From: Trypanosoma brucei
Taxonomy: Eukaryota
DNA length: 64,000 bases
Direction of reading: 5' to 3'
Assembly (NCBI GenBank): GCA_000002445.1
Contig: CP000066.1
Span: forward strand, 384,001-448,000
The notes under the pieces: generated by a model
Told to the model about the DNA's origin: nothing
Seen by the model: the letters and a program-made list of their open reading frames with translations, nothing else
Database searches by the model: none
Made by a program: the position numbers and the translations under genes
Part shown: piece after piece, positions 805 to 33,246 of the stretch
Layout of the letters: the number at the start of each line of letters is the position of its first letter
Numbering within the stretch: the stretch's first letter is position 1

Positions 805-3800
805 CGATTAAGTACCTAGCATCTCCCTATGTTTACTTTTTGTTTGACATCTTTTAGCTAGCGGTCGACTTCGCATTACTACTTCACCCACTGCGGCGTT
901 AGGTCTGTTCGCGCTGGCAACAGTGATGCCCCCGGCACCTTCTGATTTAGTTGCATTGTTACGTGCCATGGTTTCAGCCGACGCATACCTTTAAACCTTG
1001 CTGTTTGGATTTCTGTGTGCCGCATCGGAGGGAGGCAGCGCTTCCTTTTCTACATCGTCGGGCCTAAACAACTTTACCAAGAAAATTTCCACATCTACGC
1101 GAAGCCGTTAACCTCTTTTCTCTGGTCTAATCAAGCCACATTATCCACTTAGTGCTCAGGGGCTATTCATTGTAGTAAGTGTGTGGGAGTTTCCACTCAC
1201 CCTACTCTTAGAGCGTCACAGCAGCCCTCTATTTTGTGCCCACGCCAGTGCTACAAGTTCTCGATGAGGGTACCTTGTTCCATACATTTTGTCGGGTGGT
1301 GCGTGCATTGGAGATTCTTTGGAACCGTTTTCAATGTCAGGAACGCTCCGCTTCTCAATCTCTTCCCATTCAATTTTTATCTGGGTGTTTGTTCCCATAA
1401 AGTAGAGTACCCCCCGCCACATCAATGCGCTCGGCTGCACCTTCAATAGAGTAATTGGCTCCGACGCCAAGACCACGTGGCCAGTGCCGTAAAGGTCTTC
1501 CGTTCGCCCGTAGGACCTGATTAAAGTTGAAAAGACGTCCAAATGCGTTGCGTTGGTGTGTGGAATAACGTGGCGACGAAAAGTGGTAACTTCAACAGAA
1601 GGTAGCGGCTTTCAGTGAAGGCTCTTTTTCCAAAGCGTCGTTGACACCTCACCCGCCAGTGAGGTAAGTGGCCGCTAATTTTACACCCATGGGGTTTCCT
1701 CAACTGGCAAAGCCCATTCTCTAAGGTTGAGCTTCCTGTGGCCTCGTCTGCTCGCAGGTGAAATTTATGCAGTTTTATTCTTCACTAACTGTTTGATTTT
1801 CCGCGTGGTGTAAAGTGGGCAACAAAAACGAGGGGGTATTATTGTAGGCATCAAGCAATCCTAAGGGTGTACTTCCTTCGGAGTGGACTCAAATTCTTTA
1901 CAACCAAGAGCCCTACCAATTAAAAAGAAGGTGCAAGCAAGAAACCTCACTGCGCGTACAAAAGTAAACAAAAGAGGTGAATAATAACGGCCGAATACTG
2001 TAAAAAAAAACTAATGCGGAACAGTTGTGTGTGTTGTGGTTTGATCAATGTTATTCGCAGCCTCGGGCTCCCACCAAAAAACTAAGACTTGTAGGAGAGT
2101 GGTGTGTGACAACCAAGCTTGGGTGTTCTTGCAGTCAGTCAGAAAGTGGTGGTTATTTTTCAATTATAACAATGAGCACTATAACTGTACTAAGGAACTT
2201 TAGAAAACAGACACGAAGAGTCTTGCCACTAGCAGTACCGTTGAGTTGGAGTCAAAGTTAAATTAGGAGCGGTTTCCAGTTCCCTGCAGACCACCAGAGT
2301 TAACACCAACCTCTTCTTCAGCATCTTTCAAAGTTCGCCACCGCTGGAGTGTCAGCAATTGCGCTTTAAATATCACCTCTCGACCATGTGGTGTTCTATG
2401 CGAGAAGTGATGTGGCTACCACAAACTTTGTGCCTTTTGTGTTCATTTCCATGGACCTCCCTAGAGTTCCATCAAGTAGCCCACCTGCATTCAATGTTTC
2501 ACTAACTGCATACTACAGTGGTGTACGCGGCATTCTAGCAACAGCCTTCCTCAGTCAGTCGTGTCTCACCTCGAGGTGTTTAATCTTGTGACGGCTACTT
2601 GGCGATGGTCTCTAAGTTCTTTGGCCGTAATGCACCTTATATTTGTGTCACTGACAGAATTCTCAAACCCACTATCTGTTGTGCGTTCCGCTAACCGCTG
2701 TAACGACCTATTGGCTTCTCCCACTTCCGCAGATGGGTCCTTCGTTTCTAGGAGATTGATTCGTAGCATCGTCTGCGTTCTTGTATGTCCTCCCTTCCTT
2801 TGCAAACACCCCCACCCTGTAACCCCCATACCCATCACCCTCATGTTCTTTTTGTTCACCTTACTCTCCTGTCCACCTATCTGTATCACCGGACTGTTGT
2901 TGTATCTCTACTCCAAAACATGCAACACTGTTCCACGTAACTTTCGCAATTTTCCTCACTACACAAATTTCCACGAACTCCTTAAACCTCCGAAAGCGAC
3001 GAATCGGCCCCACTTTGGTGATATCCCCCTCAACCTTGTCAAGTATCCCCCTGCTCTTCCCTTGTGATGCGGTTGTTGAAAACGACTAATACACACAAAA
3101 CTCCCAGTGTACTCCATCCTACCACAAAAAAAAAACATATAGTTGCATCCTCCATCGCCTGTTACCAACATTTGATTTCCGATTATTTTTTGTATGCGCA
3201 GCATAAAGTTCCTTAAATTACCCTCACACCATGATATTTATAGTGGTTAACAACAGTCTCTCTCCTATCGATAAAGGGGTGAACCAGCCGCTTTGCACAC
3301 ACTTTGTGCCCGGCTACATCTTTTTGTCTCTAAGGTGAGGGCATTTTCCCGTGAATTTATGATTTCACCGCATTTTTTTCCTCCAAATTTCTGCCAACTC
3401 TGTATTGAAACAACTGAACTCATTCTATCAAATATTCCGTTAATTCTTGAGCACATCAGCACACACTCTCGAAAACCCGGTGAATGCTGCGACAAAACCT
3501 CCATCGGAGCGATCACGCTTTAGACAGAAATGCAATTCCTGAGAACATTACCGATAAAACGTGTAACCATCCGCACTACATTCAACTCTACACTTTTCTG
3601 GGAGTCTTTACCACACACCTTTATCCCTTCTATTCACTTAAGGTGTTAAATCTAATTTACTCAATACCTATTTCAAGGGATTGTCAATTCCATCTTGTTA
3701 AAAAAGGGACAAACCAGCTTGGAAGGAGTTTTCCTTTCTATTCCGCATTCTTTCACTTCACGGGATACTGAGAGTATTGTTCAGTCAATATTATTGAAAA

Positions 3801-5567
3801 AAAAATGTCAACACACTGCTGTAGCAAAAAAAAAAAAGAAAGCATAACTTGAGTGATATTTGAATCACATCACGTCGCTTACTATATGAATTTCCCATTT
3901 ACATTTGCTATCCTCTAATTCACATCCCTCCCCTGCCTTGAATCCACTAGTGTTTACCTGTTGTTGACGTTACCATCGTTAAACGTCAGAAGAGCCTTTT
4001 TTGGAATCACGCCCGTGCTCATTCTGACGTTGCTTTCCTTTTCTCTTAGTTTCCCGTCTTACCTGATATTTGCCAATTCAAACCAGGTTTTACTTAATTT
4101 TTGGCATTGCCAATTTTCCTGTTTGACTCTTCAAACTCTTTTTGTAGCTTTTCAATGGCATCTGCGAGCGTTCTCTTATCATTCTCGTAGTCTTTCAGAT
4201 CCCTCATTTCGTTGAAAACTTTTAACAACTCCCTCATCCACGGTATATTCTTAATATCTCTGTTCCTACCCCTAACCACGTAGCGCACACGGTGGCCAGG
4301 GGCTTCTTGGGGCAGAATCCAGAGCCGCCAGAAGCTGAACTTTCTCCTATCACCAAAGACATAGGTAGTTCCGGTACATCCATCAACACCGTGGTTAATC
4401 ATGTCGCGGAAGTCGTTTACTAGTTTGTTAAACCCTTCTTGTGGGCCTTCCATACTTGAGCACTGTTCTTTGAGAAAATACCACCTTTCCCCCGCGTCTT
4501 CATCTGGTCTCCACACCGCCCTATTATCTCCCCTAGCGCAACGACTACAGCAGAGCTGAGTTTCTCTTCCCAAATTCATACGAGGCGCGCACAAACACAA
4601 CAAATCCCTACTCAATGATACGGACGCTTTAAGCTTTTGTGAACGTGAGAGTTGCTGCTCACATACCTGTCTCCTGTCGGAACTGCGTGCTTTAATTTCT
4701 TGTGGTCGATATGGAACACCATACAGCGCGCGATTAATACCTTTTTCGAGATCACTTGCTTTCAAAACCCATCTCCGATTTTTGGTTATATTTTGGAATA
4801 TCTGCGCAACGGAAAGAACCTTTTTTCTAATCTCCACCACTTCACGTTCGGACAATCCTCCTACCGAAAGTAGGGTTGTATTTCCCCTAGTTGCCAATTC
4901 TTTTTTCGATTCATTCCAAAACACTTTGTGGAGTGCACAGTTTCTTTTCCCCGCGCCTTCGCAAGTTTTGTTCAAATCCCTGTCTCCACTCATTTCCAAA
5001 TACATTGCTCCAATTCGAGCCGCCCCTTTAGTGATTTCCTGTGCTTCTTTCATCTTTCCAAGTGCTGCTTCTGCCAAATTTATCATGCCACACAATGTCT
5101 TAAACTCATCCCCGTTAACTATCCGCCGATCACCCGAGACAGTTGCCGGGAATACCAGCGCAAGCAAAACAGTGCAAAGATTTATAGCGCGCATTCTCTC
5201 CCTTCACTTCAATCAACAACTTCACCTCTTAAAAATACACAAGAAGATCATATAAAAATGCGAATGCATACCCCACATGCACCTTTGAATAAGTTATAGG
5301 AGTTGATAGAAAGGTAAATATACTACAAGTCAAATACCAACATTTGATGGATGTGCTTCTAAAAGTAAAAAAAGACTTAAGTAGTGTTAGATGGCAGTTT
5401 ACAAAAGTGGAGGTAAGTGTCCTTGGTGCCAAATCGACGCATGCTCTGGCATTTCATTTGGACCTTGATTTCTGCTGTAGGGAGGTTGCATCACTTCCGT
5501 AAATCTTGGGCTTATCCACTGTAGAAATAACCTATGACACTTTATACTTCCGAAGAATTAACTTTTT
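805..5567. repeat. Tandem segmental duplication, unit 1 (~4.76 kb). It carries one surface/secreted-protein gene plus ~3.3 kb of 3' flank.
   Basis: Direct alignment by eye. 805-5567 matches 6874-11636 at an offset of 6068-6069 bp with near identity; examples are 811 'gtacctagcatctccctatgtttac' = 6880, and ORF 1183..1449 = ORF 7251..7517 with 100% protein identity. The left boundary is at ~805/6874 and the right boundary at ~5567/11636, where the flanks diverge. Confidence 0.9.
4094..5194 (-). CDS. Secreted/surface glycoprotein-like protein, family member A (366 aa). It has an N-terminal signal peptide and many N-glycosylation sequons.
   Basis: Long intact ORF. The N-terminus MRAINLCTVLLALVFPATVSG is a hydrophobic signal-peptide-like segment followed by a mature region. 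It shares motifs with two paralogs (NG[DN]EFKTLCG, D[LI]LCLC[AK]P, IPW[ML][RK]xL). Several NxT/S sequons are present (NKT, NES, NTT, NIT). The C-terminus has no hydrophobic tail, so a GPI anchor is not supported. Confidence 0.7.
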   Translation of the reverse strand: MRAINLCTVLLALVFPATVSGDRRIVNGDEFKTLCGMINLAEAALGKMKEAQEITKGAARIGAMYLEMSGDRDLNKTCEGAGKRNCALHKVFWNESKKELATRGNTTLLSVGGLSEREVVEIRKKVLSVAQIFQNITKNRRWVLKASDLEKGINRALYGVPYRPQEIKARSSDRRQVCEQQLSRSQKLKASVSLSRDLLCLCAPRMNLGRETQLCCSRCARGDNRAVWRPDEDAGERWYFLKEQCSSMEGPQEGFNKLVNDFRDMINHGVDGCTGTTYVFGDRRKFSFWRLWILPQEAPGHRVRYVVRGRNRDIKNIPWMRELLKVFNEMRDLKDYENDKRTLADAIEKLQKEFEESNRKIGNAKN

Positions 5568-9800: not shown

Positions 9801-11636
9801 CTTTCTATTCCGCATTCTTTCACTTCACGGGATACTGAGAGTATTGTTCAGTCAATATTATTGAAAAAAAAATGTCAACACACTGCTGTAGCAAAAAAAA
9901 AAAAAAGAAAGCATAACTTGAGTGATATTTGAATCACATCACGTCGCTTACTATATGAATTTCCCATTTACATTTGCTATCCTCTAATTCACATCCCTCC
10001 CCTGCCTTGAATCCACTAGTGTTTACCTGTTGTTGACGTTACCATCGTTAAACGTCAGAAGAGCCTTTTTTGGAATCACGCCCGTGCTCATTCTGACGTT
10101 GCTTTCCTTTTCTCTTAGTTTCCCGTCTTACCTGATATTTGCCAATTCAAACCAGGTTTTACTTAATTTTTGGCATTGCCAATTTTCCTGTTTGACTCTT
10201 CAAACTCTTTTTGTAGCTTTTCAATGGCATCTGCGAGCGTTCTCTTATCATTCTCGTAGTCTTTCAGATCCCTCATTTCGTTGAAAACTTTTAACAACTC
10301 CCTCATCCACGGTATATTCTTAATATCTCTGTTCCTACCCCTAACCACGTAGCGCACACGGTGACCTGCGAGACTGTGTGCCATGATCGGATAGCGCCAA
10401 AAGCTGAATCCAACCCCACCCCCCAAAGTATATGCCGTCCCTCTGCATTCATCTTCACCGCCGTACGTAGCCTTGCGAAAGTTGTCCACCAGTTTGTTAA
10501 ACCCTTCTTGTGGGCCTTCCATACTTGAGCACTGCTTTTTAAGGAAGTGCCATCTTCCAGTTGCATTCTTATTTGTTTCCCACATACCTTCATTTTGATT
10601 CCTAACACACTCTTTGCAGCAAAGATGGGCTTTCCATCCCAAATTCATACGAGGCGCGCACAAACACAACAAATCCCTACTCAATGATACGGACGCTTTA
10701 AGCTTTTGTGAACGTGAGAGTTGCTGCTCACATACCTGTCTCCTGTCGGAACTGCGTGCTTTAATTTCTTGTGGTCGATATGGAACACCATACAGCGCGC
10801 GATTAATACCTTTTTCGAGATCACTTGCTTTCAAAACCCATCTCCGATTTTTGGTTATATTTTGGAATATCTGCGCAACGGAAAGAACCTTTTTTCTAAT
10901 CTCCACCACTTCACGTTCGGACAATCCTCCTACCGAAAGTAGGGTTGTATTTCCCCTAGTTGCCAATTCTTTTTTCGATTCATTCCAAAACACTTTGTGG
11001 AGTGCACAGTTTCTTTTCCCCGCGCCTTCGCAAGTTTTGTTCAAATCCCTGTCTCCACTCATTTCCAAATACATTGCTCCAATTCGAGCCGCCCCTTTAG
11101 TGATTTCCTGTGCTTCTTTCATCTTTCCAAGTGCTGCTTCTGCCAAATTTATCATGCCACACAATGTCTTAAACTCATTCCCGTTAACCAGCCATTCCGA
11201 ACCCGAGACAGTTGCCGGGAATACCAGCGCAAGCAAAACAGTGCAAAGATTTATAGCGCGCATTCTCTCCCTTCACTTCAATCAACAACTTCACCTCTTA
11301 AAAATACACAAGAAGATCATATAAAAATGCGAATGCATACCCCACATGCACCTTTGAATAAGTTATAGGAGTTGATAGAAAGGTAAATATACTACAAGTC
11401 AAATACCAACATTTGATGGATGTGCTTCTAAAAGTAAAAAAAGACTTAAGTAGTGTTAGATGGCAGTTTACAAAAGTGGAGGTAAGTGTCCTTGGTGCCA
11501 AATCGACGCATGCTCTGGCATTTCATTTGGACCTTGATTTCTGCTGTAGGGAGGTTGCATCACTTCCGTAAATCTTGGGCTTATCCACTGTAGAAATAAC
11601 CTATGACACTTTATACTTCCGAAGAATTAACTTTTG
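6874..11636. repeat. Tandem segmental duplication, unit 2. It is separated from unit 1 by a ~1.3 kb unique spacer.
   Basis: Same alignment as unit 1. Only scattered SNPs and homopolymer-length differences occur outside the CDS, for example A10 at 3120 vs A9 at 9190, and 2630 'ccttatattt' vs 8699 'ccttccattt'. Confidence 0.9.
10163..11263 (-). CDS. Secreted/surface glycoprotein-like protein, family member B (366 aa). It is the duplicate of member A with mosaic divergent segments.
   Basis: Same length and frame as 4094..5194. It is identical over most of its length but differs at VSGSEWLVNGNE vs VSGDRRIVNGDE, and in a ~90 aa block (NLGWKAHLCCKECVRNQNEGMWETNKNATGRWHFLKK...TYGGEDECRGTAYTLGGGVGFSFWRYPIMAHSLAGHRV vs NLGRETQLCCSRCARGDNRAVWRPDEDAGERWYFLKE...INHGVDGCTGTTYVFGDRRKFSFWRLWILPQEAPGHRV). 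Confidence 0.7.
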   Translation of the reverse strand: MRAINLCTVLLALVFPATVSGSEWLVNGNEFKTLCGMINLAEAALGKMKEAQEITKGAARIGAMYLEMSGDRDLNKTCEGAGKRNCALHKVFWNESKKELATRGNTTLLSVGGLSEREVVEIRKKVLSVAQIFQNITKNRRWVLKASDLEKGINRALYGVPYRPQEIKARSSDRRQVCEQQLSRSQKLKASVSLSRDLLCLCAPRMNLGWKAHLCCKECVRNQNEGMWETNKNATGRWHFLKKQCSSMEGPQEGFNKLVDNFRKATYGGEDECRGTAYTLGGGVGFSFWRYPIMAHSLAGHRVRYVVRGRNRDIKNIPWMRELLKVFNEMRDLKDYENDKRTLADAIEKLQKEFEESNRKIGNAKN

Positions 11637-12342: not shown

Positions 12343-13440
12343 TTAATTTAAGAGCAGTAAAAGAAGTATTTTTAAAGGGTTAGGGTTAGGGTTCCCATTT
12401 ACTGACCAAAGTGGTCGTGTTTGTGGTTCTGCGGATGTATTAGTTCCGCTTTCATTCATTAGTGGATCTTCTAGATTATATTCAGTGTTATTACCATCAT
12501 TGTGCTTGTAATTAATATTATCATTATCATTATTATTGTTATTATCATCATTAGTGCGAATGCCTTCGTTAATCTTTCGGTCCGTTGAAGGTGCGGCATC
12601 TCCAACTCCATTTGGAACGGTTTCGACGTCGTTTTCACTCGTGCCCAAATTGGTTCGTGTATCATTCGGTATTTTCTCGGCAAGTTCTTCAAGATGCTTT
12701 AACCAGGGGATGCTATGGTTGGTGAGTGTGCCGGAAGTGATGTTATACATCAAACACACCGAATTACCCTTTCCAGTGGTTGCTGAGCATTGCTTCACTT
12801 CTGTTGCCTGATGACCCCCGAGTCGTATGTTTTGATCTGATTCCCTTCCCTTCTTTTCTGTCGCTGTTCTCAGTACTGCTTGAACTTTTTCCTTTAAGTG
12901 GTATAATTGATTTTGTATATGTTGCTCCCGTTTCGGAAGTTGGTTACAATGCAACCTTATTTTCTCCCAATGCTGCTTAGCTTGCTCTTTATTGCTCCAC
13001 ACCTCACCGCCCTTGTACCACTTGTTACCGCTAAAACACAGATCTTCTGCACCAGCCCCGTTTTGGCCCTGCCTTCTGTGGGGTTTACATAGACACAAAA
13101 TATCCTTTATTAAGCTTTTCCCCGCATATTTGTGGGCTCGATTTTGCCTGTCCCCGCAGTAATCTTTCCTGTCGTTTTCGCCTTCGAAACCAATTTCGGT
13201 GCTGCCTTTGTTGCCGTACAAAATGGTATTCACGGACTCGTTAACACTTTCAGGTTTCAATCCTCCAAGTGTTGGCTTTCCTTCACTCGCCAATTTCTGT
13301 ATTTCAAACGTCAGATTGACAAATCCACATAATGTTTTAAACTCGTTTTCATTCAATATTTGTGAACCCTTCTTTCCTGCTTTTGAACTTTCCACTGTCC
13401 CAGTCAACAATACGACAATAAATGAGAAATATATCCGCAT
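12343..13440 (-). CDS. Divergent paralog C of the same secreted/surface family (365 aa), with an Asn/Asp-rich low-complexity C-terminal extension.
   Basis: It has an N-terminal signal-like segment MRIYFSFIVVLLTGTVESS, then NENEFKTLCGFVNL, DILCLCKP and IPWLKHLEEL, which match members A and B. The C-terminal ~100 aa is N/D-rich (NDDNNNNNDNDNINYKHNDGNN) and ends NPNPNPLKILLLLLLN, encoded partly by an interstitial telomere-type repeat. The true stop may lie earlier. Confidence 0.6.
   Translation of the reverse strand: MRIYFSFIVVLLTGTVESSKAGKKGSQILNENEFKTLCGFVNLTFEIQKLASEGKPTLGGLKPESVNESVNTILYGNKGSTEIGFEGENDRKDYCGDRQNRAHKYAGKSLIKDILCLCKPHRRQGQNGAGAEDLCFSGNKWYKGGEVWSNKEQAKQHWEKIRLHCNQLPKREQHIQNQLYHLKEKVQAVLRTATEKKGRESDQNIRLGGHQATEVKQCSATTGKGNSVCLMYNITSGTLTNHSIPWLKHLEELAEKIPNDTRTNLGTSENDVETVPNGVGDAAPSTDRKINEGIRTNDDNNNNNDNDNINYKHNDGNNTEYNLEDPLMNESGTNTSAEPQTRPLWSVNGNPNPNPLKILLLLLLN
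12369..12388. repeat. Interstitial telomeric hexamer repeat, (TTAGGG)3 on the plus strand and CCCTAA on the coding strand.
   Basis: Sequence 'agggttagggttagggttccc' at 12367-12390, inside the 3' end of the paralog C ORF, where it is translated as NPNPNP. Confidence 0.8.
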
Positions 13441-17247: not shown

Positions 17248-17505
17248 AACGTATGAATCTGCACGTACCTAATCAGTGTCTTCGTACTTGTGGTAAGTTT
17301 CACACCTTCAGTACCACTTGTTGTGTTTGAAGAAAGTAAATGGCTTACGATTACTTACTTAAACACTTCCAACTCACAGAGAAATTAGGAAAAGGTGGGC
17401 GGGACACACATACGCTGGCGCTTGACGCAATGGAAACATTGGCCGCTACAAGCGTCGCGATACATCACATGCAATCAATCGCCCAAAAGAAGAAATGATG
17501 GAAAG

Positions 17506-17506
<1 letters not shown>

Positions 17507-17534
<28 letters not shown>
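17507..17534. repeat. (CA)14 microsatellite.
   Basis: Direct read: 'cacacacacacacacacacacacacaca'. Confidence 0.95.
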
Positions 17535-17536
<2 letters not shown>

Positions 17537-17722
17537 CGCACACAAGAACTCATTGAGGAAGTGATTGACTGACATAATTGTGAAAGGGGCAAATGATACA
17601 ATTAAGAGTGCCCGTTGCAGGGACAACTTCGTCACCTCCCAACAGTTTACATGATGGCATCTCCACATGGTAACCGAAGGCAGCGAGGCGGGACACGTGT
17701 TGTAACCCTCTCACATTTACAT

Positions 17723-18631
17723 TTATGTTGACCTTCTAGCAACTGTTGAAGTAATGATGTACCAACCGGCGATACCCCCGCAATAGGCACCGCCGTACAC
17801 CAAACGTTTAAGCCATGTTTTCTCTTGGAGAAAGTCAAAAGTTGGAGGCCCAATAAAGTTGCAGAGTGCATGAGTGACTATAGTGGAAGGTAAGTTCCTC
17901 TTTCCAACAACAACATAGCAATACCCGGTGAGCAAACCACAGGCAAATGTGCAGAGGTACAAACCAGGAAGTTTTTTTGCTGCACGTCTCCAGCACACTA
18001 GTTGTTTCCCGGGTTGAAGCTCATTATTTCCCATTATATAACGATATTCCCAAGCCACAGAGGGAAAGATATGGTGCGTGTGTGATATAGCAAACAGTAC
18101 TGACGATATGACTATAGATGACGTCACGGACCGTCGCTGAAGTAATATTTGAAGAAGCAGTGCGCGGAAAAAAATTTCTTCACCTGTTGGACAAATCACA
18201 TTGTCTCGAAGAAAAATTTCATCCGCGTCCTGTTGAAATAGAGCGATTCCCTTCTCTAACAGGGCTCCACTGAAGAGCGCGAGCGTGGCCAAGGCGGTGG
18301 ATACAGTAACGTGAAGGGCTCGCAACACATTGCCCTCTTGACAAAACAGAAAGTGGATTACAGCACTGGGACCAACAGATGTTTTATCGCGTGCTTCCTT
18401 GAAGAGAAGATACTCCAACACCAGCCAACTAACAGCAGTGGATCCAACAAAAGAAATAAGTCGCCTTCGAAATGTTGAGGGATCATTTCGGTCCAAATGT
18501 TCCGGCCCGCACTCCCATGCCTTTTCGATATCTTTCATGCAGAGAAGGGCAAAAGTCCGCTCCTTCCGCCATAAAAAGATGGTCCCAACAAACCCACCAC
18601 AAAGAAGAGTGCAGATGCCGACATCACTCAT
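17723..18631 (-). CDS. RCE1: CAAX prenyl protease 2 (Rce1-type, CPBP/Abi family) homolog (302 aa).
   Basis: Three CPBP catalytic motifs are present in order: EExxxR (GEEIFFRAL), FxxxH (FAISHTHH) and HxxxN (THALCNF). The protein is multi-pass hydrophobic. Confidence 0.65.
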   Translation of the reverse strand: MSDVGICTLLCGGFVGTIFLWRKERTFALLCMKDIEKAWECGPEHLDRNDPSTFRRRLISFVGSTAVSWLVLEYLLFKEARDKTSVGPSAVIHFLFCQEGNVLRALHVTVSTALATLALFSGALLEKGIALFQQDADEIFLRDNVICPTGEEIFFRALLLQILLQRRSVTSSIVISSVLFAISHTHHIFPSVAWEYRYIMGNNELQPGKQLVCWRRAAKKLPGLYLCTFACGLLTGYCYVVVGKRNLPSTIVTHALCNFIGPPTFDFLQEKTWLKRLVYGGAYCGGIAGWYIITSTVARRST

Positions 18632-19845
18632 CTATTGAAAACGTCCCCACAATGCCAACGTGCACAATTTCTTTTTTTTTTCAAAAAAAGAAAGAAAGGT
18701 ATGAATAACTCCGCTGAAGGGAATAATGGTTATCACATAGGAATTCAGGCGACCAGAAGCAAACTGAGTTGCGATGAAAAGAAGCGTACCTAAAAGGGGG
18801 AAAAACGGCACCCAAGAAAAATCCGCCCCGTACACGAAAGGAACTAATGGAAACCTCATGAGTGAGTGGTGTTCATTTAAAACTTCCTTCAGGGACGGTC
18901 ACATCACTCAGATGGAAGAAGACACAAGTTGGATAAAAACCCGCTTAGCGGCCATGCGAACAAATGACATCAGCACCTGCCGCTTTGTTGCACACGATTC
19001 ATACGTGCATCTTTAGTAGCGAGCTAACGAAAGAAATAGAAAGTCTGATATTAGTCGGAAATCATGCATCAAACACAGAAATTTTGGCTTCCCATCCATC
19101 CCATTTGTGTGTGTAGAGCCGCAATCGTTGCGCCACAGTTTATGCGGTGGGAAGGGGGAAATGGTTCTTTATTTTTTTTTAAAAAAGTAAAAAGTTATTT
19201 CTTGTGTCTCAGGCATCACGCGACAGAAATTCATCATTCGTGATGATGCAACAAAAAATTTTATGCACTGTTAACTTCACACTTGTCATCGTAGGCTTTA
19301 TAATGCACATCACAGTTCTCTACAGAAATACTTTGCTATTTGTTGTGGTACCAAGGTTAAAAAAAAAAAGAATGAAGCACCAGTTTAGTAGTCAGTGCTG
19401 AAGCTAATAGCAGACACGGAGGGGGGAAAAAAAAGGAAAATGCCACACGACTTGCGGTACACATACACGAGTAAACGCACACAATTATATTTGCAGGTAA
19501 AATAAAAGCGTACGTGAGGGGAGCGTTGCCGGTCGCAGATATGATTAATGAAGAAGCAACACACCTTTTTATCACTAATGTCAGAACGACTAGATATGTG
19601 CGGCGTTATGTGTATATAATGGCAACCATAATAAAAAGTAACGAATCGCAATATTAAACTACACAGAAGATATTCACAGTTCCACTTCGAACTGCTGCCC
19701 GGTGTGTCGGCAGTCAGGGAATTTTTTTTTTTTTTTATAGAAAAAAAAAGAAAACCAAATAAAAATAAATGCATTCCCACATCATCCTATTTGAACAAAT
19801 CAAGACAAAAAAAGAAAAAGAAAAAGAAAAAAGAAAAGAAAAACA

Positions 19846-22800
19846 CTAAAGTACTTCCTCGGCCAGCGTTAGTGCAACGCGGAAAGTCCCTCCCTCGTCT
19901 GTTTCTGCGATCATTTGCTGAAAACACGGTGTTGTATTTAATGGGCGCTCTGCCATACACGTGGCGCGGAGGTATGTCGAAATGGGCGAGCGCTCATCTT
20001 CTGAAAAACGCTCAAAGACACGACACCGATGCCATACATCCCATCGGAGCGAGCCGGTACGCAAGCGAAGAGAAGTTAACGCACTGTCGCTGTTTTTTGG
20101 TACCTGTGGTGATGAGAGCGCTGCAATAAATTCCCTTAAAGCCTCATGATCAGCCTCTTCCGTGACAGCTCCTCTCGTCACTGGAGATGTTAACATCTGA
20201 CAATTGACGTCAAGCGTACAAAGCGTTCGCTCGATGGCTATGGCCACGCATACGCTAGTCTCAATCTCCTCAACTCGGCGTATTGCTGTGCTGTATGTCG
20301 TTCGAAGAGTCTCAACATTAGAAAATAGCGGGTCGCTGTAAAACAAGTCCTTTATGCTGCTCGTAACTTCCTCCGATTTCTGCATAACATAAGCCGCAAT
20401 CGCTTCGTTGGTTTCAACGTGGCGATGGGAAAGTAAAGGATGGAGGGCGTTACTGAAATTGGCTTGCACTGTCTCCAAGAGGAGCATATCTAGTTGTAAC
20501 TCGCTTTCCATCCAGTTCACGACATCATGTGCCTGCTCTTCCGGCACAAACAACTGCTCAATAATCTCCTCTGGGGAACGGGGGGCGGCCTGCTCCCACA
20601 ATAGCCACCATGTATTGTCCTCACGGCGTTGCATCCGTTCAGAGAGATAAGCACTGTCATTTATATCAACCTCAAAGTCGGGTTTAGTTGGACCACCAGT
20701 TTCAGTGGTTCCAGTGGCGGGTGAATGTGGCGGAGAAACAAAGTCACGCGGGCTGTACCAATGAACAAAATCAGCAAAGCGGACCACCCGTCCCTCATGG
20801 GATCGATTTACATAAAGAAATAAACACATGTCGTTGAACAGCCCCTCGTTAAGTACCAAACTGGGACTGTGCTGAGAAGAGGAGGCAGAGTGCGAGTGTG
20901 GATCACGTTCCTCCTGACTCTTTGCGAGTAGGATATCAGTTGTATAGGGAGGAACAGGAAGGGGTTGCGGTTCCACAAGCACCTCACCATTTGTAATAAG
21001 TCTTTTGACCCTTTTTGTACAACGTCCATAAAATTCACTATCATTTGAGCGGTGGATCACGTCTTCCACACCATCTTGCGACCCATCCAATTTTGGTGAA
21101 CCTTGTTCATTTGCGGAACCCCATTCGTCCTGTGCGGGCTGATCAGCAGGCACAGTTGCGTTTTTCTCTAGCATCCGCCTGGAACATATGACAAGCAACT
21201 GCATCTTTTGTATGATCAAAGGCATTCCGTGATTAATTTCATCCACAGCTGGTATGCCAATGGTGGCAATTAGTTTCTGCAGTGACCCCTTCCTGTCCTC
21301 GCTGTCGTCAAGAAGGGCTTTTAGACGCTGCACAATAACTTTCCACAAGGCACGCACACCATCAATATCGTGTACATCACGTGCGCAGGCACATGCAAAG
21401 CGACATAATAATGAACCGGGGTAGTAGACATTGCGGACATCCGATTTGAATTCTCCCTTACATGCAGGAAACATTGCCAGCGGACTGACGGGTGAGTTAC
21501 GGTCCTTCCACATACCTCCGCAGCGGTCCATGATATCATCCGCCAAACCAATTATATCGTCCGTAATATTTGGAGAGTTTTCCGATCCACTACCCTGAGA
21601 AATGTATTGCATTACTGTTTCATAGTACTTTGAGAGATACTTACAAGATGCGTGATTCAAGTCGGATTCATCTTTGGGAATTGCTACGGCTGTAATATTT
21701 AACTTGTCTTCCAACATATATTTGGCTTCAGGTGTGAATGGGTTCAAGTTGGAGGCGCGCGCTCCGTCGTCCCGCGCTTCCGTATCCCGCAGCTGATTCC
21801 ACTGAAACGTGAAATAAATTCCACGTAATGGTGCGGTCCCTGTGCCAAAAGGGAAAGTCGTTCGCATAGTGGACGGGAGAATATTATCGTTTTCATTGTC
21901 CAGTGCAGCACCCCACGACAACGCAAGCTCACCATGACGTATGTCACTGGACGTGATCCGGGGTAGTGCGGGATTCATGGAAAAGCGGCGAGGCGGCATC
22001 AACTTAAACTTACGTTGAAGCGACACACAAATGCCTTCAAATGTATCCCTTCGCACACGGCTTTGTTTCCCAAGGTGTAGTTGGAAAACATCAAGGCAAT
22101 CAATTACTCTCCTACAGCAATCGGGAGTGCTCGGGTACGCGGTGCAACAAAAGCGACACTTCACCACCAGATGAACAAAAAGTTGGTGCAATGTGGCATG
22201 TGTGGTATCCAACGCAGCGCCTCCGTTGCTAGTGAACGCATCCACCAATGCAGGCGGTGCCACTCCCATAAATGTCAGTTGCGACGGATCACCGACAGCA
22301 ACAAAGCAAGGTACTGTTCCATTTGCATAATAAAAAGGCGATGTGAGACTCAGTGGGTCACGCTCAAAGTAAAGTGAAAATGAGACACGCATAGCGCGAC
22401 TCACAGCGCAGACAAGGAGAGAAAGGTAAAAGGACGATTCGCTGTAACTGTGATGTAAAGATGTGGCCGTATTCCGCACTAAAAAAAACACAGGAACTGC
22501 AAATAGGCGAACGATCGGGTGTTGTTGTTGTTGTTGCTGCTCAAAATTATGGACGTGAATTTCAACCATAATCTCCTCCCCATCATTGTCACTCCAAGCT
22601 TCACGAGCACTCCTGCGGTTGATGGTGAAGCGCCGACCCAACACCATCTCCCTGTTGTCATCATCATTATCAGTTCCACGTGTGCATCTGGTCTTCCCTT
22701 CACCCACCGCATTCGTAGTCAAGGCAAACCGTTGCAATTCGGGATGCGTGCGGAATTCCATTATAATGTACTGTTCCATCTCTTTAACAACTTCCTCAAA

Positions 22801-22875
22801 GAGTGTATTGCAGGAATAATCTTCTATTTCTAAAGGAATCTCCTCTTCAACATCCGCTAATTCCATTGAACTCAT
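19846..22875 (-). CDS. Rab3 GTPase-activating protein catalytic subunit (RAB3GAP1)-like protein (1009 aa).
   Basis: A ~1000 aa ORF of a size typical for RAB3GAP1. It contains the segment ADFVHWYSPRDF, matching the conserved FVRWYSPRDY block of the Rab3GAP1 catalytic-domain region. It also has a poly-Gln run and an acidic N-terminus. The assignment comes from motif recall only. Confidence 0.5.
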   Translation of the reverse strand: MSSMELADVEEEIPLEIEDYSCNTLFEEVVKEMEQYIIMEFRTHPELQRFALTTNAVGEGKTRCTRGTDNDDDNREMVLGRRFTINRRSAREAWSDNDGEEIMVEIHVHNFEQQQQQQHPIVRLFAVPVFFLVRNTATSLHHSYSESSFYLSLLVCAVSRAMRVSFSLYFERDPLSLTSPFYYANGTVPCFVAVGDPSQLTFMGVAPPALVDAFTSNGGAALDTTHATLHQLFVHLVVKCRFCCTAYPSTPDCCRRVIDCLDVFQLHLGKQSRVRRDTFEGICVSLQRKFKLMPPRRFSMNPALPRITSSDIRHGELALSWGAALDNENDNILPSTMRTTFPFGTGTAPLRGIYFTFQWNQLRDTEARDDGARASNLNPFTPEAKYMLEDKLNITAVAIPKDESDLNHASCKYLSKYYETVMQYISQGSGSENSPNITDDIIGLADDIMDRCGGMWKDRNSPVSPLAMFPACKGEFKSDVRNVYYPGSLLCRFACACARDVHDIDGVRALWKVIVQRLKALLDDSEDRKGSLQKLIATIGIPAVDEINHGMPLIIQKMQLLVICSRRMLEKNATVPADQPAQDEWGSANEQGSPKLDGSQDGVEDVIHRSNDSEFYGRCTKRVKRLITNGEVLVEPQPLPVPPYTTDILLAKSQEERDPHSHSASSSQHSPSLVLNEGLFNDMCLFLYVNRSHEGRVVRFADFVHWYSPRDFVSPPHSPATGTTETGGPTKPDFEVDINDSAYLSERMQRREDNTWWLLWEQAAPRSPEEIIEQLFVPEEQAHDVVNWMESELQLDMLLLETVQANFSNALHPLLSHRHVETNEAIAAYVMQKSEEVTSSIKDLFYSDPLFSNVETLRTTYSTAIRRVEEIETSVCVAIAIERTLCTLDVNCQMLTSPVTRGAVTEEADHEALREFIAALSSPQVPKNSDSALTSLRLRTGSLRWDVWHRCRVFERFSEDERSPISTYLRATCMAERPLNTTPCFQQMIAETDEGGTFRVALTLAEEVL

Positions 22876-31239: not shown

Positions 31240-33246
31240 TCATCTTTTCGCAGTAACGGTCCGGAGTGTACGCAAACGATTGAGGGCAGCACCAATCTCT
31301 ATGTGCCTTGTTGCTGAGGTGAACCCTCGAGGTAGATAACATGAGGGTGTTCGCAGTTCAAGTCGCTTGTCATGCTGGTGACTGCAGCATCCAGCGATCA
31401 TAGAGGAGAAATTAGAGTTAAACTTTCCTCTTTGAATCTCGCACACGCCACCTGGAGAAGGTAATTGTGTTAGCGCACCACCCTTTGTCGTCATTTCAGG
31501 CACAATCCGCGGTTCCCCGTCGTACAGCAACGCGAGGCACTGAGCTATTGCATTTACTTGCCCCTCCTCAACAATCTGTTCCACCATCGAAAGGTCAATA
31601 GTTTCCTCCGAGAATCGGATAGATTCTGTACCAATGCCACTCACTTTGGTTCCTTCCCTGCCACGTCGACGGCGCACTGTTGTGAAGGAGCCGTCAGGAT
31701 CAAAACACCGGTTCACGTCCGGTATGAACACGGAGGCGGTGTCTCCTGGAGGGTTTAGTGCCGGCAACGAGGAATTTGAGGCAATTTCTTTCGCTTCCTT
31801 TGTGCAATCAGAGATCTGGTAGGCATTCATGACGAGCACAACACGTGCCTGTGGAAAATACTGTCCGGATCCGCCAATAACCATGATGGAGGAAACCCCG
31901 TGATTCTGTGAGAGATCTGCTACGCGCTCCACGAAAGGCGTAATGGGTTCCTGGGCCCGCGGAACAAGCATTTGCATCAGCGCATCACGGTACATTAGAT
32001 TAGTGGCACAGGTGTCTTCGTCGAGTAATAGTAACTGCGAACCCAACTCCAAAGCCTCCATGATGTTAGCTGCTTGACTTGTGCTCCCACTGGCGTCGGC
32101 TGTTACGAAGAAATTAGTGGTCTTCCCAAAAGGAAGATTGTTGATGAAGGGTGAAATATCCACGCCGTGAACCGAGCGCCTGTCCTCCGCACGGATTTTA
32201 ACAGCTGTTGGGTCCACCACAACATAGGTCCGACCGTCATCAGGCACGTGGTTATATATTCCCACCTCCAGAGCGCGCAGAAGCGTTGACTTGCCGTGAA
32301 AACCGCCACCCGCTATGAGGGTAAGCCCCGGTGGGAGGCCCATGCCAGTGATTGTTTTGCCACTGTGTGGTAGGGTGAATGAGCACTCAAGTGATTTGGG
32401 TGATTGAAATGGCACCGCATTATCTCGCAACGGCTTGTCGCTGTTACCGGCATCACGCGGAAGAATCGCACCGTTTGCAACGAAGGCAACATACCCGGCG
32501 CCCAGAAGGTTGGAGCGAAGTACCTCTTGGTCATGTACGCATATGACGTGTTGGTGGAGATCTTCTTCGTTCAGCCCGACGACGCATTGTTCAAGGAGCG
32601 GGACGAGTTCATTGTAAAATATGTCGATAGCACCATGCCCATCAATACGTCGACCATGCCCCGGTAGCTTTACACGAGCAAATATCTCGATTTCTGCCTG
32701 CATACCGCTTTTCTGTTGATGCGCCTTGACAAGGCCAACGGTGCTACGCTCCAGCACGTGCTGCGATGGTCGAAGCACCTGCACAGCCCCACTCGTGCGG
32801 CGCGGTATACCGTTACGATACCCAGCATGGAAGGAACGAAGAATAAAATCTTCGGCGGCAACGCGTCGGCACGGGTTCGCCGCCGCCAAATCTGTGGTTT
32901 GTAGCACCTTCTCTAAAGAAAATGTGCACGGGCACACCAAGCGCACCTGACTGCCAGGGGCAAAAGGATCAGACTGGATGGACAAAAATGTGCATCTCAC
33001 ATTTTCGGAAATTTGGTACGTCTCATTTGTGAGGGAGCGCAGTTCACCGTAATTGCGTCCCTCTACTGAATGAAAGAAATCCATTAGTGGTGAGAACCCT
33101 GTGGAACCGGAGGAAATGGCAGCTCCCTCATTATTTGAAGGCATGTGGCCACCGCGTTCCATTGGCGCATTGTTATGCCAATGGGAGTGTCCCCTTCCGC
33201 CACCTCTACCGCCACGGTAATGCCCGCCGTAGCCACGATGGTACAT
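31240..33246 (-). CDS. Predicted ABC-class ATPase fold protein (PF09818-like) with an N-terminal RGG/Gly-Arg-rich RNA-binding-type tail. It may correspond to kinetoplastid MRB1590-like mitochondrial RNA-editing accessory ATPase.
   Basis: The Walker A/P-loop GGGFHGKSTLL is embedded in LPPGLTLIAGGGFHGKSTLLRALEVGIY, followed by hhhhDE (LLLLDEDTCATN), a Walker B-like motif. The N-terminus MYHRGYGGHYRGGRGGGRGHSHWH is an RGG box. The MRB1590 link comes from recalling that it has this fold. Confidence 0.6.
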   Translation of the reverse strand: MYHRGYGGHYRGGRGGGRGHSHWHNNAPMERGGHMPSNNEGAAISSGSTGFSPLMDFFHSVEGRNYGELRSLTNETYQISENVRCTFLSIQSDPFAPGSQVRLVCPCTFSLEKVLQTTDLAAANPCRRVAAEDFILRSFHAGYRNGIPRRTSGAVQVLRPSQHVLERSTVGLVKAHQQKSGMQAEIEIFARVKLPGHGRRIDGHGAIDIFYNELVPLLEQCVVGLNEEDLHQHVICVHDQEVLRSNLLGAGYVAFVANGAILPRDAGNSDKPLRDNAVPFQSPKSLECSFTLPHSGKTITGMGLPPGLTLIAGGGFHGKSTLLRALEVGIYNHVPDDGRTYVVVDPTAVKIRAEDRRSVHGVDISPFINNLPFGKTTNFFVTADASGSTSQAANIMEALELGSQLLLLDEDTCATNLMYRDALMQMLVPRAQEPITPFVERVADLSQNHGVSSIMVIGGSGQYFPQARVVLVMNAYQISDCTKEAKEIASNSSLPALNPPGDTASVFIPDVNRCFDPDGSFTTVRRRRGREGTKVSGIGTESIRFSEETIDLSMVEQIVEEGQVNAIAQCLALLYDGEPRIVPEMTTKGGALTQLPSPGGVCEIQRGKFNSNFSSMIAGCCSHQHDKRLELRTPSCYLPRGFTSATRHIEIGAALNRLRTLRTVTAKR

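Follow-up and report, generated by a model that had tools for sequence, protein, structure and literature searches.

A 75-codon open reading frame (ORF) with a hydrophobic translation ends on the minus strand of the window, a 64,000-nucleotide stretch of Trypanosoma brucei TREU927 chromosome 3 (positions 384001-448000; the offset of 384000 was verified on three genes), in a TAG that directly adjoins the ATG of an Rce1-like ORF in the same frame. The question raised by this arrangement is whether the upstream frame is, as the original prediction proposed, the genuine Rce1 N terminus, which a nonsense mutation or a sequencing error has interrupted, or whether it is a separately translated upstream ORF (uORF) or an open frame that arose by chance.

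The 302-Residue ORF Encodes Complete TbRce1

The downstream ORF (17723..18631, minus strand) is the complete coding sequence of TbRce1, CAAX prenyl protease 2, a protein of 302 residues and 33.8 kDa whose gene identifier, Tb927.3.1540, was taken from the tables of Jensen and Vasquez. Its translation is identical to the TREU927 entry XP_843748.1/Q57XY7, T. equiperdum also has an exact match, and the GenBank clones ABG89278 and ABG89279 both encode 302 residues. The proposed identity as a kinetoplastid Rce1 was confirmed by a match of residues 141-260 to Pfam PF02517 (Rce1-like) with a score of 59.3 bits (cutoff 22.4) and an E value of 4.6e-16. The motif set of Rce1 enzymes comprises Glu-Glu..Arg, two His, an aromatic residue four positions before the first His, an Asn near the second His and a eukaryote-type Cys (PMC5874806); in TbRce1, residues E151, E152, R156, F180, H184, H186, H254, C257, and N258 are invariant across 15 kinetoplastid Rce1 sequences. 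A sequence search of the PDB with the Rce1 profile returned no matches, and a fold search showed that the multi-span membrane fold of TbRce1 resembles that of the solved M. maripaludis Rce1. The 302-residue ORF shares with the Rce1 family (PF02517; yeast Rce1p, human RCE1, and M. maripaludis Rce1, PDB 4CAD) the Pfam domain, the EExxxR, FxxxH, and HxxxN motifs, the eukaryote-type Cys, the multi-helix membrane fold, and the typical size.

The original prediction had further reasoned that a membrane helix is to be expected at the start of Rce1 and might be supplied by the upstream frame. This does not hold because the 302-residue protein already opens with a hydrophobic helix: residues 1-22 form a transmembrane-like segment, with helices from residue 2. 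The masses of Rce1 orthologues range from 30 to 37 kDa (PMC5874806), and the 33.8 kDa of TbRce1 lies inside this range, whereas addition of the upstream extension would give a protein of 42.6 kDa, outside it. PMC5874806 (citing Mokry 2009 and Gillespie 2007) describes TbRce1 as active in yeast, inhibitor-sensitive, and essential. Both the mass of the extended protein and the reported essentiality and enzymatic activity of the gene count against an interrupted N terminus. The 302-residue ORF is the complete and functional TbRce1, and the gene model of this essential protease of a drug-target class is confirmed as complete.

Composition of the Upstream Frame and Its Expectation by Chance

The 75-codon ORF (18859..18632, minus strand; chromosome 3 402859..402632) runs from ATG to TAG and in the ORF listing encodes the peptide MRFPLVPFVYGADFSWVPFFPLLGTLLFIATQFASGRLNSYVITIIPFSGVIHTFLSFFEKKKKLCTLALWGRFQ, followed by the stop. 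Continuous translation shows that the TAG at 18634-18632 is the sole separator between this ORF and the Rce1 ATG, in one frame, and the minus-strand junction reads ...TTT CAA TAG ATG AGT GAT.... The peptide has a GRAVY value of 0.73, and the original description of a hydrophobic ORF ending in frame at the Rce1 start is accurate; the same-frame arrangement and the hydrophobic composition are the only observations that favor an interrupted N terminus. A Pfam search with the peptide gave no matches, and no homologues were found among 5.8 billion protein clusters in a search that requires shared 5-mers, so that very distant relatives could escape it. The codon-usage score of the ORF, -0.114, is that of non-coding ORFs (mean -0.120) and falls outside the range of genes (0.058 to 0.311). 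A coding gene on the opposite strand was considered and rejected, the plus-strand ORFs at 18635-18793 and 18774-19016 being short chance frames. A search of positions 17500-20000 against Rfam gave a single match, to SCARNA7, which was sub-threshold (16 bits versus a cutoff of 65) and was dismissed.

In the window's 33 kb of non-coding DNA, the sense strand is 33% T and contains 26 ATG-initiated ORFs of at least 75 codons, with a mean GRAVY of 0.40 (sd 0.78), so that the ORF is unremarkable in both length and hydrophobicity; the hydrophobic appearance of its peptide follows from T-rich codons (Phe, Leu, Ile, Val, Ser, and Pro). Stop trinucleotides account for 4.6% of triplets in the non-coding DNA, and an ATG-ORF of 75 codons or more precedes 1.7% of stops, which together give a frequency of about 0.0008 per gene for the joint event. 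T. brucei has roughly 9000 genes, among which about seven cases of an ORF whose stop abuts the start of a gene are expected by chance. The explanation that we regard as highly probable is that the 75-codon ORF arose by chance in the T-rich and pyrimidine-rich DNA that separates Tb927.3.1550 from Tb927.3.1540, that the TAG lies beside the ATG by coincidence, and that the 302-residue ORF is all of TbRce1.

Comparison among Strains and Species

The proposal that a nonsense mutation or a sequencing error interrupts a genuine N terminus is contradicted by the orthologues and by the upstream DNA of other strains and species. The 15 kinetoplastid Rce1 proteins (285-317 residues; TbRce1 and 14 others) have a common aligned start Met, in the sequence M-x-D; the Trypanosoma proteins (298-305 residues) and the further kinetoplastid relatives alike align from residue 1, with W21 and R48 nearly invariant. 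The TAG-ATG junction, CAATAGATG, is the same in four independent sources, namely TREU927, T. equiperdum, T. b. gambiense, and a Logan contig of run ERR7929159. The T. b. gambiense version of the ORF contains an insertion of 13 nt and a TAA in place of GAA; it has 59 codons and is out of frame with Rce1. Two of the three remaining substitutions in the ORF are non-synonymous (T to I and I to T), and the divergence of the ORF between T. b. gambiense and T. brucei is the same as the intergenic rate.

In five other Trypanosoma species, among them T. cruzi, T. rangeli, T. vivax, and T. grayi, the in-frame translations upstream of Rce1 bear no relation to the 75-residue peptide. This upstream comparison did not include T. 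congolense, and the upstream DNA of T. conorhini is a run of N. The arrangement of an ORF abutting Rce1 is lost in T. b. gambiense and was found in none of the other species examined. The adjacency of Tb927.3.1550 and Rce1 is conserved in seven Trypanosoma species, and the spacer between Rce1 and the upstream gene measures 219 nt in T. cruzi and 267 nt in T. grayi; when the neighboring untranslated regions are allowed for, these spacers are too short to accommodate an extension of 228 nt. Readthrough or recoding of the TAG was rejected because the upstream frame lacks conservation. Every test marks the upstream frame as non-coding, and Rce1 has not lost an N terminus. A separate observation concerns T. 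grayi, in which a comparable hydrophobic frame is open straight into Rce1.

RNA-processing Signals and the Rce1 Leader

The published Rce1 transcript extends from 401723 to 403335 on the minus strand and has a 5'UTR of 703 nt (Vasquez 2014). Its 5' end at 19335 (chromosome 3 403335) is preceded by a polypyrimidine tract at 19377-19353 and an AG at 19337-19336, and together these elements (19335..19377, minus strand) make up the distal spliced-leader (SL) acceptor. The 703-nt leader that starts at 19335 carries 9-10 uORFs, of which the 75-codon ORF is the last, and the list of uORFs given by Jensen begins at 403310. The preceding member, uORF 9 (18856..18876, minus strand; 402876..402856; Jensen 2014), has six codons encoding MNTTHS, and its TGA overlaps the ATG of the 75-codon ORF in the sequence ATGA.

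A second set of processing signals lies within the 75-codon ORF itself. The upstream gene, Tb927.3.1550 (19846..22875, minus strand; 403846-406875), encodes a Rab3-GAP catalytic-subunit-like protein of 1009 residues (Pfam PF13890) and has a long 3'UTR that overlaps the ORF region; its mapped transcript 3' end (poly(A) site), listed as 'alt 3UTR' in Kolev 2010 Table S3, is at 18792 (402792, minus strand), 67 nt beyond the first base of the ORF's start codon. A polypyrimidine tract, CCTTTCTTTCTTTTTTT, occupies 18683..18699 on the minus strand and encodes the residues FLSFF of the ORF. It is 17 nt long (26 nt, 18708-18683, by Kolev's definition), and the median length of such tracts in T. brucei is 18 nt (Kolev 2010). 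By the rules of Kolev 2010, the first AG after the tract (18671..18672, minus strand), with an A at the -3 position, is predicted to be a proximal SL acceptor, use of which would give a genomic 5'UTR of 39 nt (18670..18632) without an upstream ATG. The TAG that adjoins the Rce1 ATG (18632..18634, minus strand) also contains an AG, at 18633-18632. This AG is itself a possible splice acceptor and, if used, would join the spliced leader immediately to the start codon. Measured from the poly(A) site, the distance is 122 nt to the AG at 18672/18671 and 161 nt to the AG at 18633/18632. Both distances fit those reported between poly(A) sites and acceptors (median 142 nt, interquartile range 123-178 nt; Kolev 2010), with 161 nt inside the interquartile range. 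Tb927.3.1540 is absent from Kolev's dispersion table, which omits transcripts whose best splice site has fewer than 10 reads.

The original prediction had tied a start of Rce1 at the Met of the 302-residue ORF to two observations, orthologues that begin at the same Met and an SL acceptor between 18632 and 18859. The orthologues do share this Met. The published acceptor at 19335 lies outside the interval, and a second acceptor is predicted within it from the poly(A) site at 18792 and the tract and AG at 18699-18671. That the ORF contains a polypyrimidine tract and a poly(A) site, and has no similarity to any protein, argues further against an interrupted N terminus; polypyrimidine (polyY) tracts within predicted extensions have been taken as grounds to reject such extensions (Siegel 2010). 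The locus resembles the spurious N-terminal extensions in trypanosome annotation (Siegel 2010; Kolev 2010 Table S1), which likewise consist of an in-frame upstream frame with a polyY tract and splice signals. It differs from them in that here a stop already divides the frame from the coding sequence, so that the annotated start was never in doubt, and Tb927.3.1540 is not among the misannotated starts of Kolev 2010 Table S1.

In the reading that we favor, the 75-codon ORF is a chance frame in DNA that is transcribed and carries RNA-processing signals (polypyrimidine tracts, AG acceptors, and a poly(A) site). The distal acceptor, with its mapped 5' end at 19335, yields an RNA in which the ORF is the final member of a series of about ten uORFs. 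The long 3'UTR of Tb927.3.1550 ends at the mapped site 18792, inside the ORF; from this site, the tract spanning 18699-18683, and the AG at either 18672/18671 or 18633/18632, a proximal acceptor is predicted. The product of its use would be a short Rce1 mRNA free of upstream AUGs and without the start codon of the ORF. Passage of ribosomes over the ORF may cause at most a generic dampening of Rce1 translation from the long isoform.

The case also carries a caution for annotation, because the pyrimidine-rich splice signals of trypanosomatids translate into long, hydrophobic, membrane-like pseudo-peptides. Orthologues should therefore be checked before in-frame hydrophobic upstream ORFs are called lost N termini.

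Ribosome Footprints and Possible Roles of the ORF

The 75-codon ORF is already known as an ordinary, literature-listed predicted uORF. Jensen et al. 2014 (BMC Genomics 15:911, Additional file 5) list it as 'Tb927.3.1540 uORF 10', one of 3284 putative uORFs that were identified computationally, with no function given. The entry describes the identical object (Tb927_03_v4 402859..402632, 228 nt, no overlap with the coding sequence, no internal Met), and no differences were found. The same source gives, as per-region counts only, 14-37 footprints versus 46-99 mRNA reads per library for uORF 10, footprints at a floor of about 5 for uORFs 5-8, and, for uORF 9, 12-30 mRNA reads per library and a first ribosome count of 21. 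Some ribosome occupancy over the 75-codon ORF is real. The footprint counts of uORF 10 include its last 40-160 nt or so, which would be plain 5'UTR of a short isoform, and with the stop flush against the coding sequence no release score can be calculated. The mRNA counts along uORFs 1-10 do not scale with the length of the regions.

The suggestion of a separate uORF in the original prediction survives in part, in that the ORF lies inside the annotated 5'UTR (end 403335), is listed as uORF 10, and has low footprint counts; translation of the frame and a function for it are putative, and the poly(A) site at 18792 with the predicted proximal acceptor may place the ORF on an RNA other than that of Rce1. 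The ORF is at most one of about ten non-conserved uORFs in the long-leader isoform. A stronger version would make it a genuine regulatory element: ribosomes on the long leader would translate the 75-codon ORF, either by itself or together with uORFs 1, 2, and 9, and so lower or gate initiation at Rce1, and the choice between the distal and the proximal SL acceptor would tune the output. The position of the ORF within the 703-nt leader and the footprints over it are consistent with this, as is the lower mean translation efficiency of T. brucei genes that bear uORFs. The Vasquez row for the gene holds two unlabelled pairs of columns with ratios of 0.30 and 0.47, which we take to be translation efficiencies and which point in the same direction. 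However, the footprints in 5'UTRs are mostly unlinked to ATG-ORFs, and some predicted uORFs are not on the transcript of the coding sequence owing to intervening SL sites (Jensen et al. 2014). In addition, Kolev places a poly(A) site inside the ORF and marks a UTR-derived transcript, and the ORF is broken in T. b. gambiense and without conservation in the other species. On balance a regulatory uORF seems unlikely, although it is the least improbable of the alternatives.

The abutting codons suggest a coupled mode of initiation, in which a ribosome would terminate at the UAG and restart on the adjacent AUG, making Rce1 a second cistron, with uORFs 9 and 10 linked in turn by the AUGA overlap. 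The direct adjacency of UAG and AUG, the overlap of the uORF 9 TGA with the uORF 10 ATG, and the return of footprints at uORFs 9 and 10 after the floor level at uORFs 5-8 can all be read in this way. Known stop-start reinitiation junctions include the UAAUG of influenza B M1/BM2 and the TURBS of caliciviruses, and eukaryotic reinitiation after a long ORF is inefficient without special elements. As at Rce1, the stop in the viral junctions touches the next start. The Rce1 case differs from them in being unconserved and compatible with chance, in having a non-coding upstream frame, and in having no known accessory element. The loss of the abutment in T. b. gambiense, its absence in the other species examined, and the number of such cases expected in the genome by chance make termination-reinitiation very improbable. 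We give as little credence to a relay specific to T. brucei brucei, in which the UAG-AUG junction and the AUGA overlap would deliver long-leader ribosomes to the Rce1 start, with output set by the distal acceptor at 19335 versus the proximal one at about 18670. The least credible reading of all, which can be set aside, is that a nonsense mutation or a sequencing error interrupts the true Rce1 N terminus, whether as a pseudogene or as a strain polymorphism.

The chance frame remains our preferred reading, and the odd upstream frame, explained as leader sequence, matters little in itself.

Identity of the Rce1 Gene and the Upstream Frame

The large ORFs of the window all lie on the minus strand and form a single polycistronic unit. 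The coordinates of Tb927.3.1500, Tb927.3.1520, and Tb927.3.1550 in Kolev et al. 2010 (PMC2936537, Tables S1 and S3) equal those of ORFs in the window plus a constant 384000, which places the window at Tb927_03_v4:384001-448000, oriented as the chromosome. The gene for MRB1590 (Tb927.3.1590) is identifiable at 31240-33246, and the Rce1 gene is Tb927.3.1540, with agreeing coordinates in two ribosome-profiling supplements. The ORF listing places a 302-aa ATG-initiated ORF at 17723..18631 and a 75-aa ATG-initiated ORF at 18632..18859, both on the minus strand, and the junction reads ...TTT CAA TAG ATG AGT GAT GTC.... Single continuous translation puts both ORFs in one frame, with the TAG at 18634-18632 as the sole separator. 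The original prediction, a TAG abutting the Rce1 ATG with an in-frame 75-codon ORF upstream, is exact in its description by sequence, ORF listing, and translation.

The 302-aa product matches Pfam PF02517 (Rce1-like, 4.6e-16), and the 75-aa product has no Pfam match. The former is identical at every residue to the T. equiperdum protein and to XP_843748.1/Q57XY7 of T. brucei brucei TREU927, annotated as "CAAX prenyl protease 2, putative." The gene belongs to the Rce1 family as an ordinary member; TbRce1 is reported to be active when expressed in yeast, and the gene to be essential (review PMC5874806). Cloned GenBank alleles of T. brucei Rce1 are 302 aa long, and we infer that the yeast constructs were exactly the 302-aa ORF. 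The two cloned alleles, ABG89278 and ABG89279, are only ~97% identical to the 302-aa sequence, and the TREU927 and T. b. gambiense coding sequences (17723-18631 and L002 3001-3909) differ at 12 of 909 nt, eight changes being non-synonymous and four synonymous. This amino acid polymorphism is high for a gene reported to be essential.

Very probably, the 75-codon ORF is a chance frame within leader or spacer sequence, and TbRce1 is the 302-aa protein. The gene probably has two RNA 5' ends: the distal one at 19335 is documented, and a proximal one near 18670 or 18631 is predicted. On the long RNA the ORF would close a series of about ten non-conserved uORFs and could exert only a generic depression of initiation at the Rce1 ATG.

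Composition and Chance Expectation

T makes up 33% of the sense strand of the non-coding DNA of the window and 39% of the 75-codon ORF, which looks like a membrane protein because T-rich codons encode Phe, Leu, Ile, Val, and Ser. Its GRAVY is 0.73; the 26 ATG-ORFs of at least 75 codons in the 33 kb of non-coding sense strand average 0.40 (S.D. 0.78). In a codon-usage log-likelihood score trained on the genes of the window versus its non-coding sequence, the ORF scores -0.114, with a non-coding ORF mean of -0.120 (S.D. 0.207) and genes at 0.058 to 0.311. A stop directly ahead of a start codon is expected at 4.6%, and an ORF of at least 75 codons ending at that stop at 1.7%; jointly this gives ~0.0008 per gene, or about seven cases per genome. 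A parallel exists in T. grayi, where the Rce1 frame stays open across the entire spacer and an in-frame ATG there would add 50 hydrophobic, polypyrimidine-derived residues.

A 131-aa ORF (129 aa from its ATG) lies at 19385-19780 on the minus strand, between the Tb927.3.1550 stop and the distal acceptor at 19335, within the long 3'UTR mapped by Kolev to 18792. The T. b. gambiense annotation treats it as a gene (L002 1843-2232), with no Pfam family recorded for the call, and it is probably another chance T-rich ORF.

RNA Processing Signals

Published 5'UTR models use the distal spliced leader (SL) acceptor, giving a transcript at 401723-403335(-) with a 703-nt 5'UTR and nine uORFs (Vasquez et al. 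2014). Position 403335 is window position 19335, the first base past the AG at 19337/19336, which is itself downstream of a 25-nt polypyrimidine tract.

A second set of signals lies inside the 75-codon ORF, on the minus strand. The 17-nt polypyrimidine tract CCTTTCTTTCTTTTTTT (18699-18683), which encodes "FLSFF," is followed by an AG with A at -3 (18672/18671), and the next AG is that of the TAG itself (18633/18632). Kolev et al. [quoted passage not shown] In the same study, poly(A) sites precede the next trans-splice site by a median of 142 nt (interquartile range 123-178), the median polypyrimidine tract is 18 nt, AG is present at 98% of major sites, G is excluded at -3, and the SL abuts the ATG in the shortest leaders. 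The poly(A) site at 18792 is separated from the two AGs by 122 and 161 nt. A proximal SL acceptor is therefore predicted inside the ORF region; its 39-nt leader would contain no ATG.

An AG directly abuts the Rce1 ATG in T. brucei (TAG|ATG, 18632-18633), T. cruzi, and T. grayi (both GAG|ATG, positions 2999-3000 of loci L003 and L007) and is absent there in T. vivax, T. rangeli, and T. conorhini. Either a splice acceptor with a zero-length leader or just a purine-rich context could account for it.

A Logan contig (L008 1-53, run ERR7929159) that matches the window at ~18656-18632 starts with the reverse complement of SL nt 5-32 (GTACAGAAACTGTTCTAATAATAGCGTT), a sequence confirmed against Siegel 2010. 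A CGTT microhomology links the SL part to the genome at a point 25 nt upstream of the Rce1 ATG, and we read the junction as a snap-back second-strand cDNA artifact of an SL-capped Rce1 cDNA halted at the cap-4 nucleotides.

uORFs and Ribosome Footprints

The 75-codon ORF is ordinary and already catalogued as Tb927.3.1540 uORF 10. The scan of Jensen et al. 2014 from the major SL site lists ten uORFs from 403310 downward, and uORF 10 (402859-402632, 228 nt) is exactly this ORF. Its normalized mRNA counts are 47, 86, and 60 in PCF, 99, 53, and 66 in slender BF, and 67, 56, and 46 in cultured BF, and its normalized ribosome footprints are 24, 24, and 14; 26, 24, and 21; and 22, 37, and 15, respectively (Jensen et al. 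2014). These authors caution that 5'UTR footprints are mostly unlinked to ATG-ORFs and that some predicted uORFs are off the CDS transcript owing to an intervening SL site. The counts therefore establish transcription of the region and its contact with ribosomes, but neither translation of this frame nor passage into the CDS, as opposed to an end at 18792, by RNA that begins at 19335.

Footprints are present on uORFs 1 and 2, sit at a floor of ~5 on uORFs 5-8, and are back on uORFs 9 and 10 (Jensen et al. 2014). Their return could hint at an extra RNA 5' end near 18882-18888, where AGs follow a polypyrimidine tract at 18928-18910. The stop of uORF 9 (MNTTHS*, 18856-18876, minus strand) forms an ATGA overlap with the start codon of the 75-codon ORF, and a minimal ATG-TGA frame lies at 18738-18733 on the same strand.

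The Vasquez 2014 supplementary file 6 row (chr3 401723-403335, window 17723-19335) counts nine uORFs (maximum 101, mean 47.67). These are uORFs 1-9 of Jensen, each length minus 1; the 228-nt ORF was left uncounted, likely since its stop touches the CDS boundary. If read as mRNA densities, unlabelled columns of the row suggest higher values for the 5'UTR than for the CDS (38.7 versus 14.7 in one stage), which would fit additional transcripts ending at 18792.

Siegel et al. 2010 dismissed predicted upstream extensions that had polyY splice signals inside, and the 75-codon ORF is of the same kind. T. brucei has no genome-wide Kozak consensus (Stettler et al. 2026), and TAG at -3 to -1 is therefore without known significance.

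Conservation of the Upstream Frame

In T. b. gambiense, a 13-nt insertion and a GAA-to-TAA change fall inside the ORF, leaving 59 codons that stop ~60 nt ahead of the ATG in a frame different from that of Rce1. Two of the three other substitutions were classified, and both are non-synonymous (T to I, I to T). With 4 of 228 positions changed plus an indel, the ORF matches the entire 1214-nt spacer in divergence (18 mismatches, 6 indels), and in-frame sequence upstream of Rce1 is unrelated in T. cruzi, T. rangeli, T. vivax, and T. grayi. A search of 5.8 billion protein clusters yielded no relative of the 75-aa peptide. On these sequence comparisons, the ORF is without coding constraint. A specific regulatory role as a uORF is unlikely, the arrangement being lost in gambiense and absent elsewhere; the same losses make a termination-reinitiation relay through the UAG-AUG and AUGA junctions highly improbable.

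Rce1 proteins of T. congolense, T. vivax, T. grayi, T. cruzi, T. conorhini, and T. rangeli are 298-305 aa long and share an aligned start Met (M-[STG]-D-[VI]). A full HMMER scan over 1.84 billion representatives added other kinetoplastid-type relatives, 285-317 aa long, that place residue 1-10 on profile position 1-10, and in an alignment of 15 sequences every start is M-x-D or M-D, with W21 and R48 nearly invariant. All of these aligned proteins begin at the Met that corresponds to that of TbRce1. The upstream neighbor, a Rab3-GAP-like gene (Tb927.3.1550 in T. brucei), is conserved, and in T. cruzi and T. grayi only 219 and 267 nt, respectively, separate its stop from the Rce1 ATG, too little for a 228-nt extension once neighboring untranslated regions are allowed for. 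The segment CAATAGATG, with its TAG, is the same in TREU927, T. equiperdum OVI, T. b. gambiense DAL972, and the independent Logan contig (run ERR7929159), an identity across four sources that rules out a sequencing error or private polymorphism. The proposal that the ORF is a lost Rce1 N terminus, interrupted by a nonsense mutation or sequencing error to give a pseudogene or polymorphism, has almost no probability left and is rejected on the orthologue starts, the shared stop, the gambiense frameshift, the lack of relatives and of coding constraint, and the unrelated upstream sequence elsewhere.

Other Features of the Window

The 3' flank of Rce1 carries a (TG)n microsatellite (17500-17540, minus strand) that coincides with a T. 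equiperdum assembly gap. At this repeat (~17535-17539), between Rce1 and a CorA-like gene, the T. equiperdum assembly has an insert of ~2.6 kb (L001 4094-6725) holding an 814-aa AAA-ATPase ORF. The insert is absent in TREU927 and gambiense; its upstream junction, the only one read, is a run of N, and it is probably a scaffolding artifact.

Three chromosome-internal VSG-related genes lie on the minus strand: Tb927.3.1500 (4094-5194) and Tb927.3.1520 (12343-13440), each with a Pfam VSG_B match, and Tb927.3.1510 (10163-11263), assigned by size, position, and Nilsson's list. Tb927.3.1500 and Tb927.3.1510 are listed as 'up' (Nilsson 2010). Mapped SL sites fall inside the annotated ORFs of Tb927.3.1500 and Tb927.3.1520 (Kolev et al. 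2010, PMC2936537, Table S1), and the start codons of these two genes are therefore mis-set.
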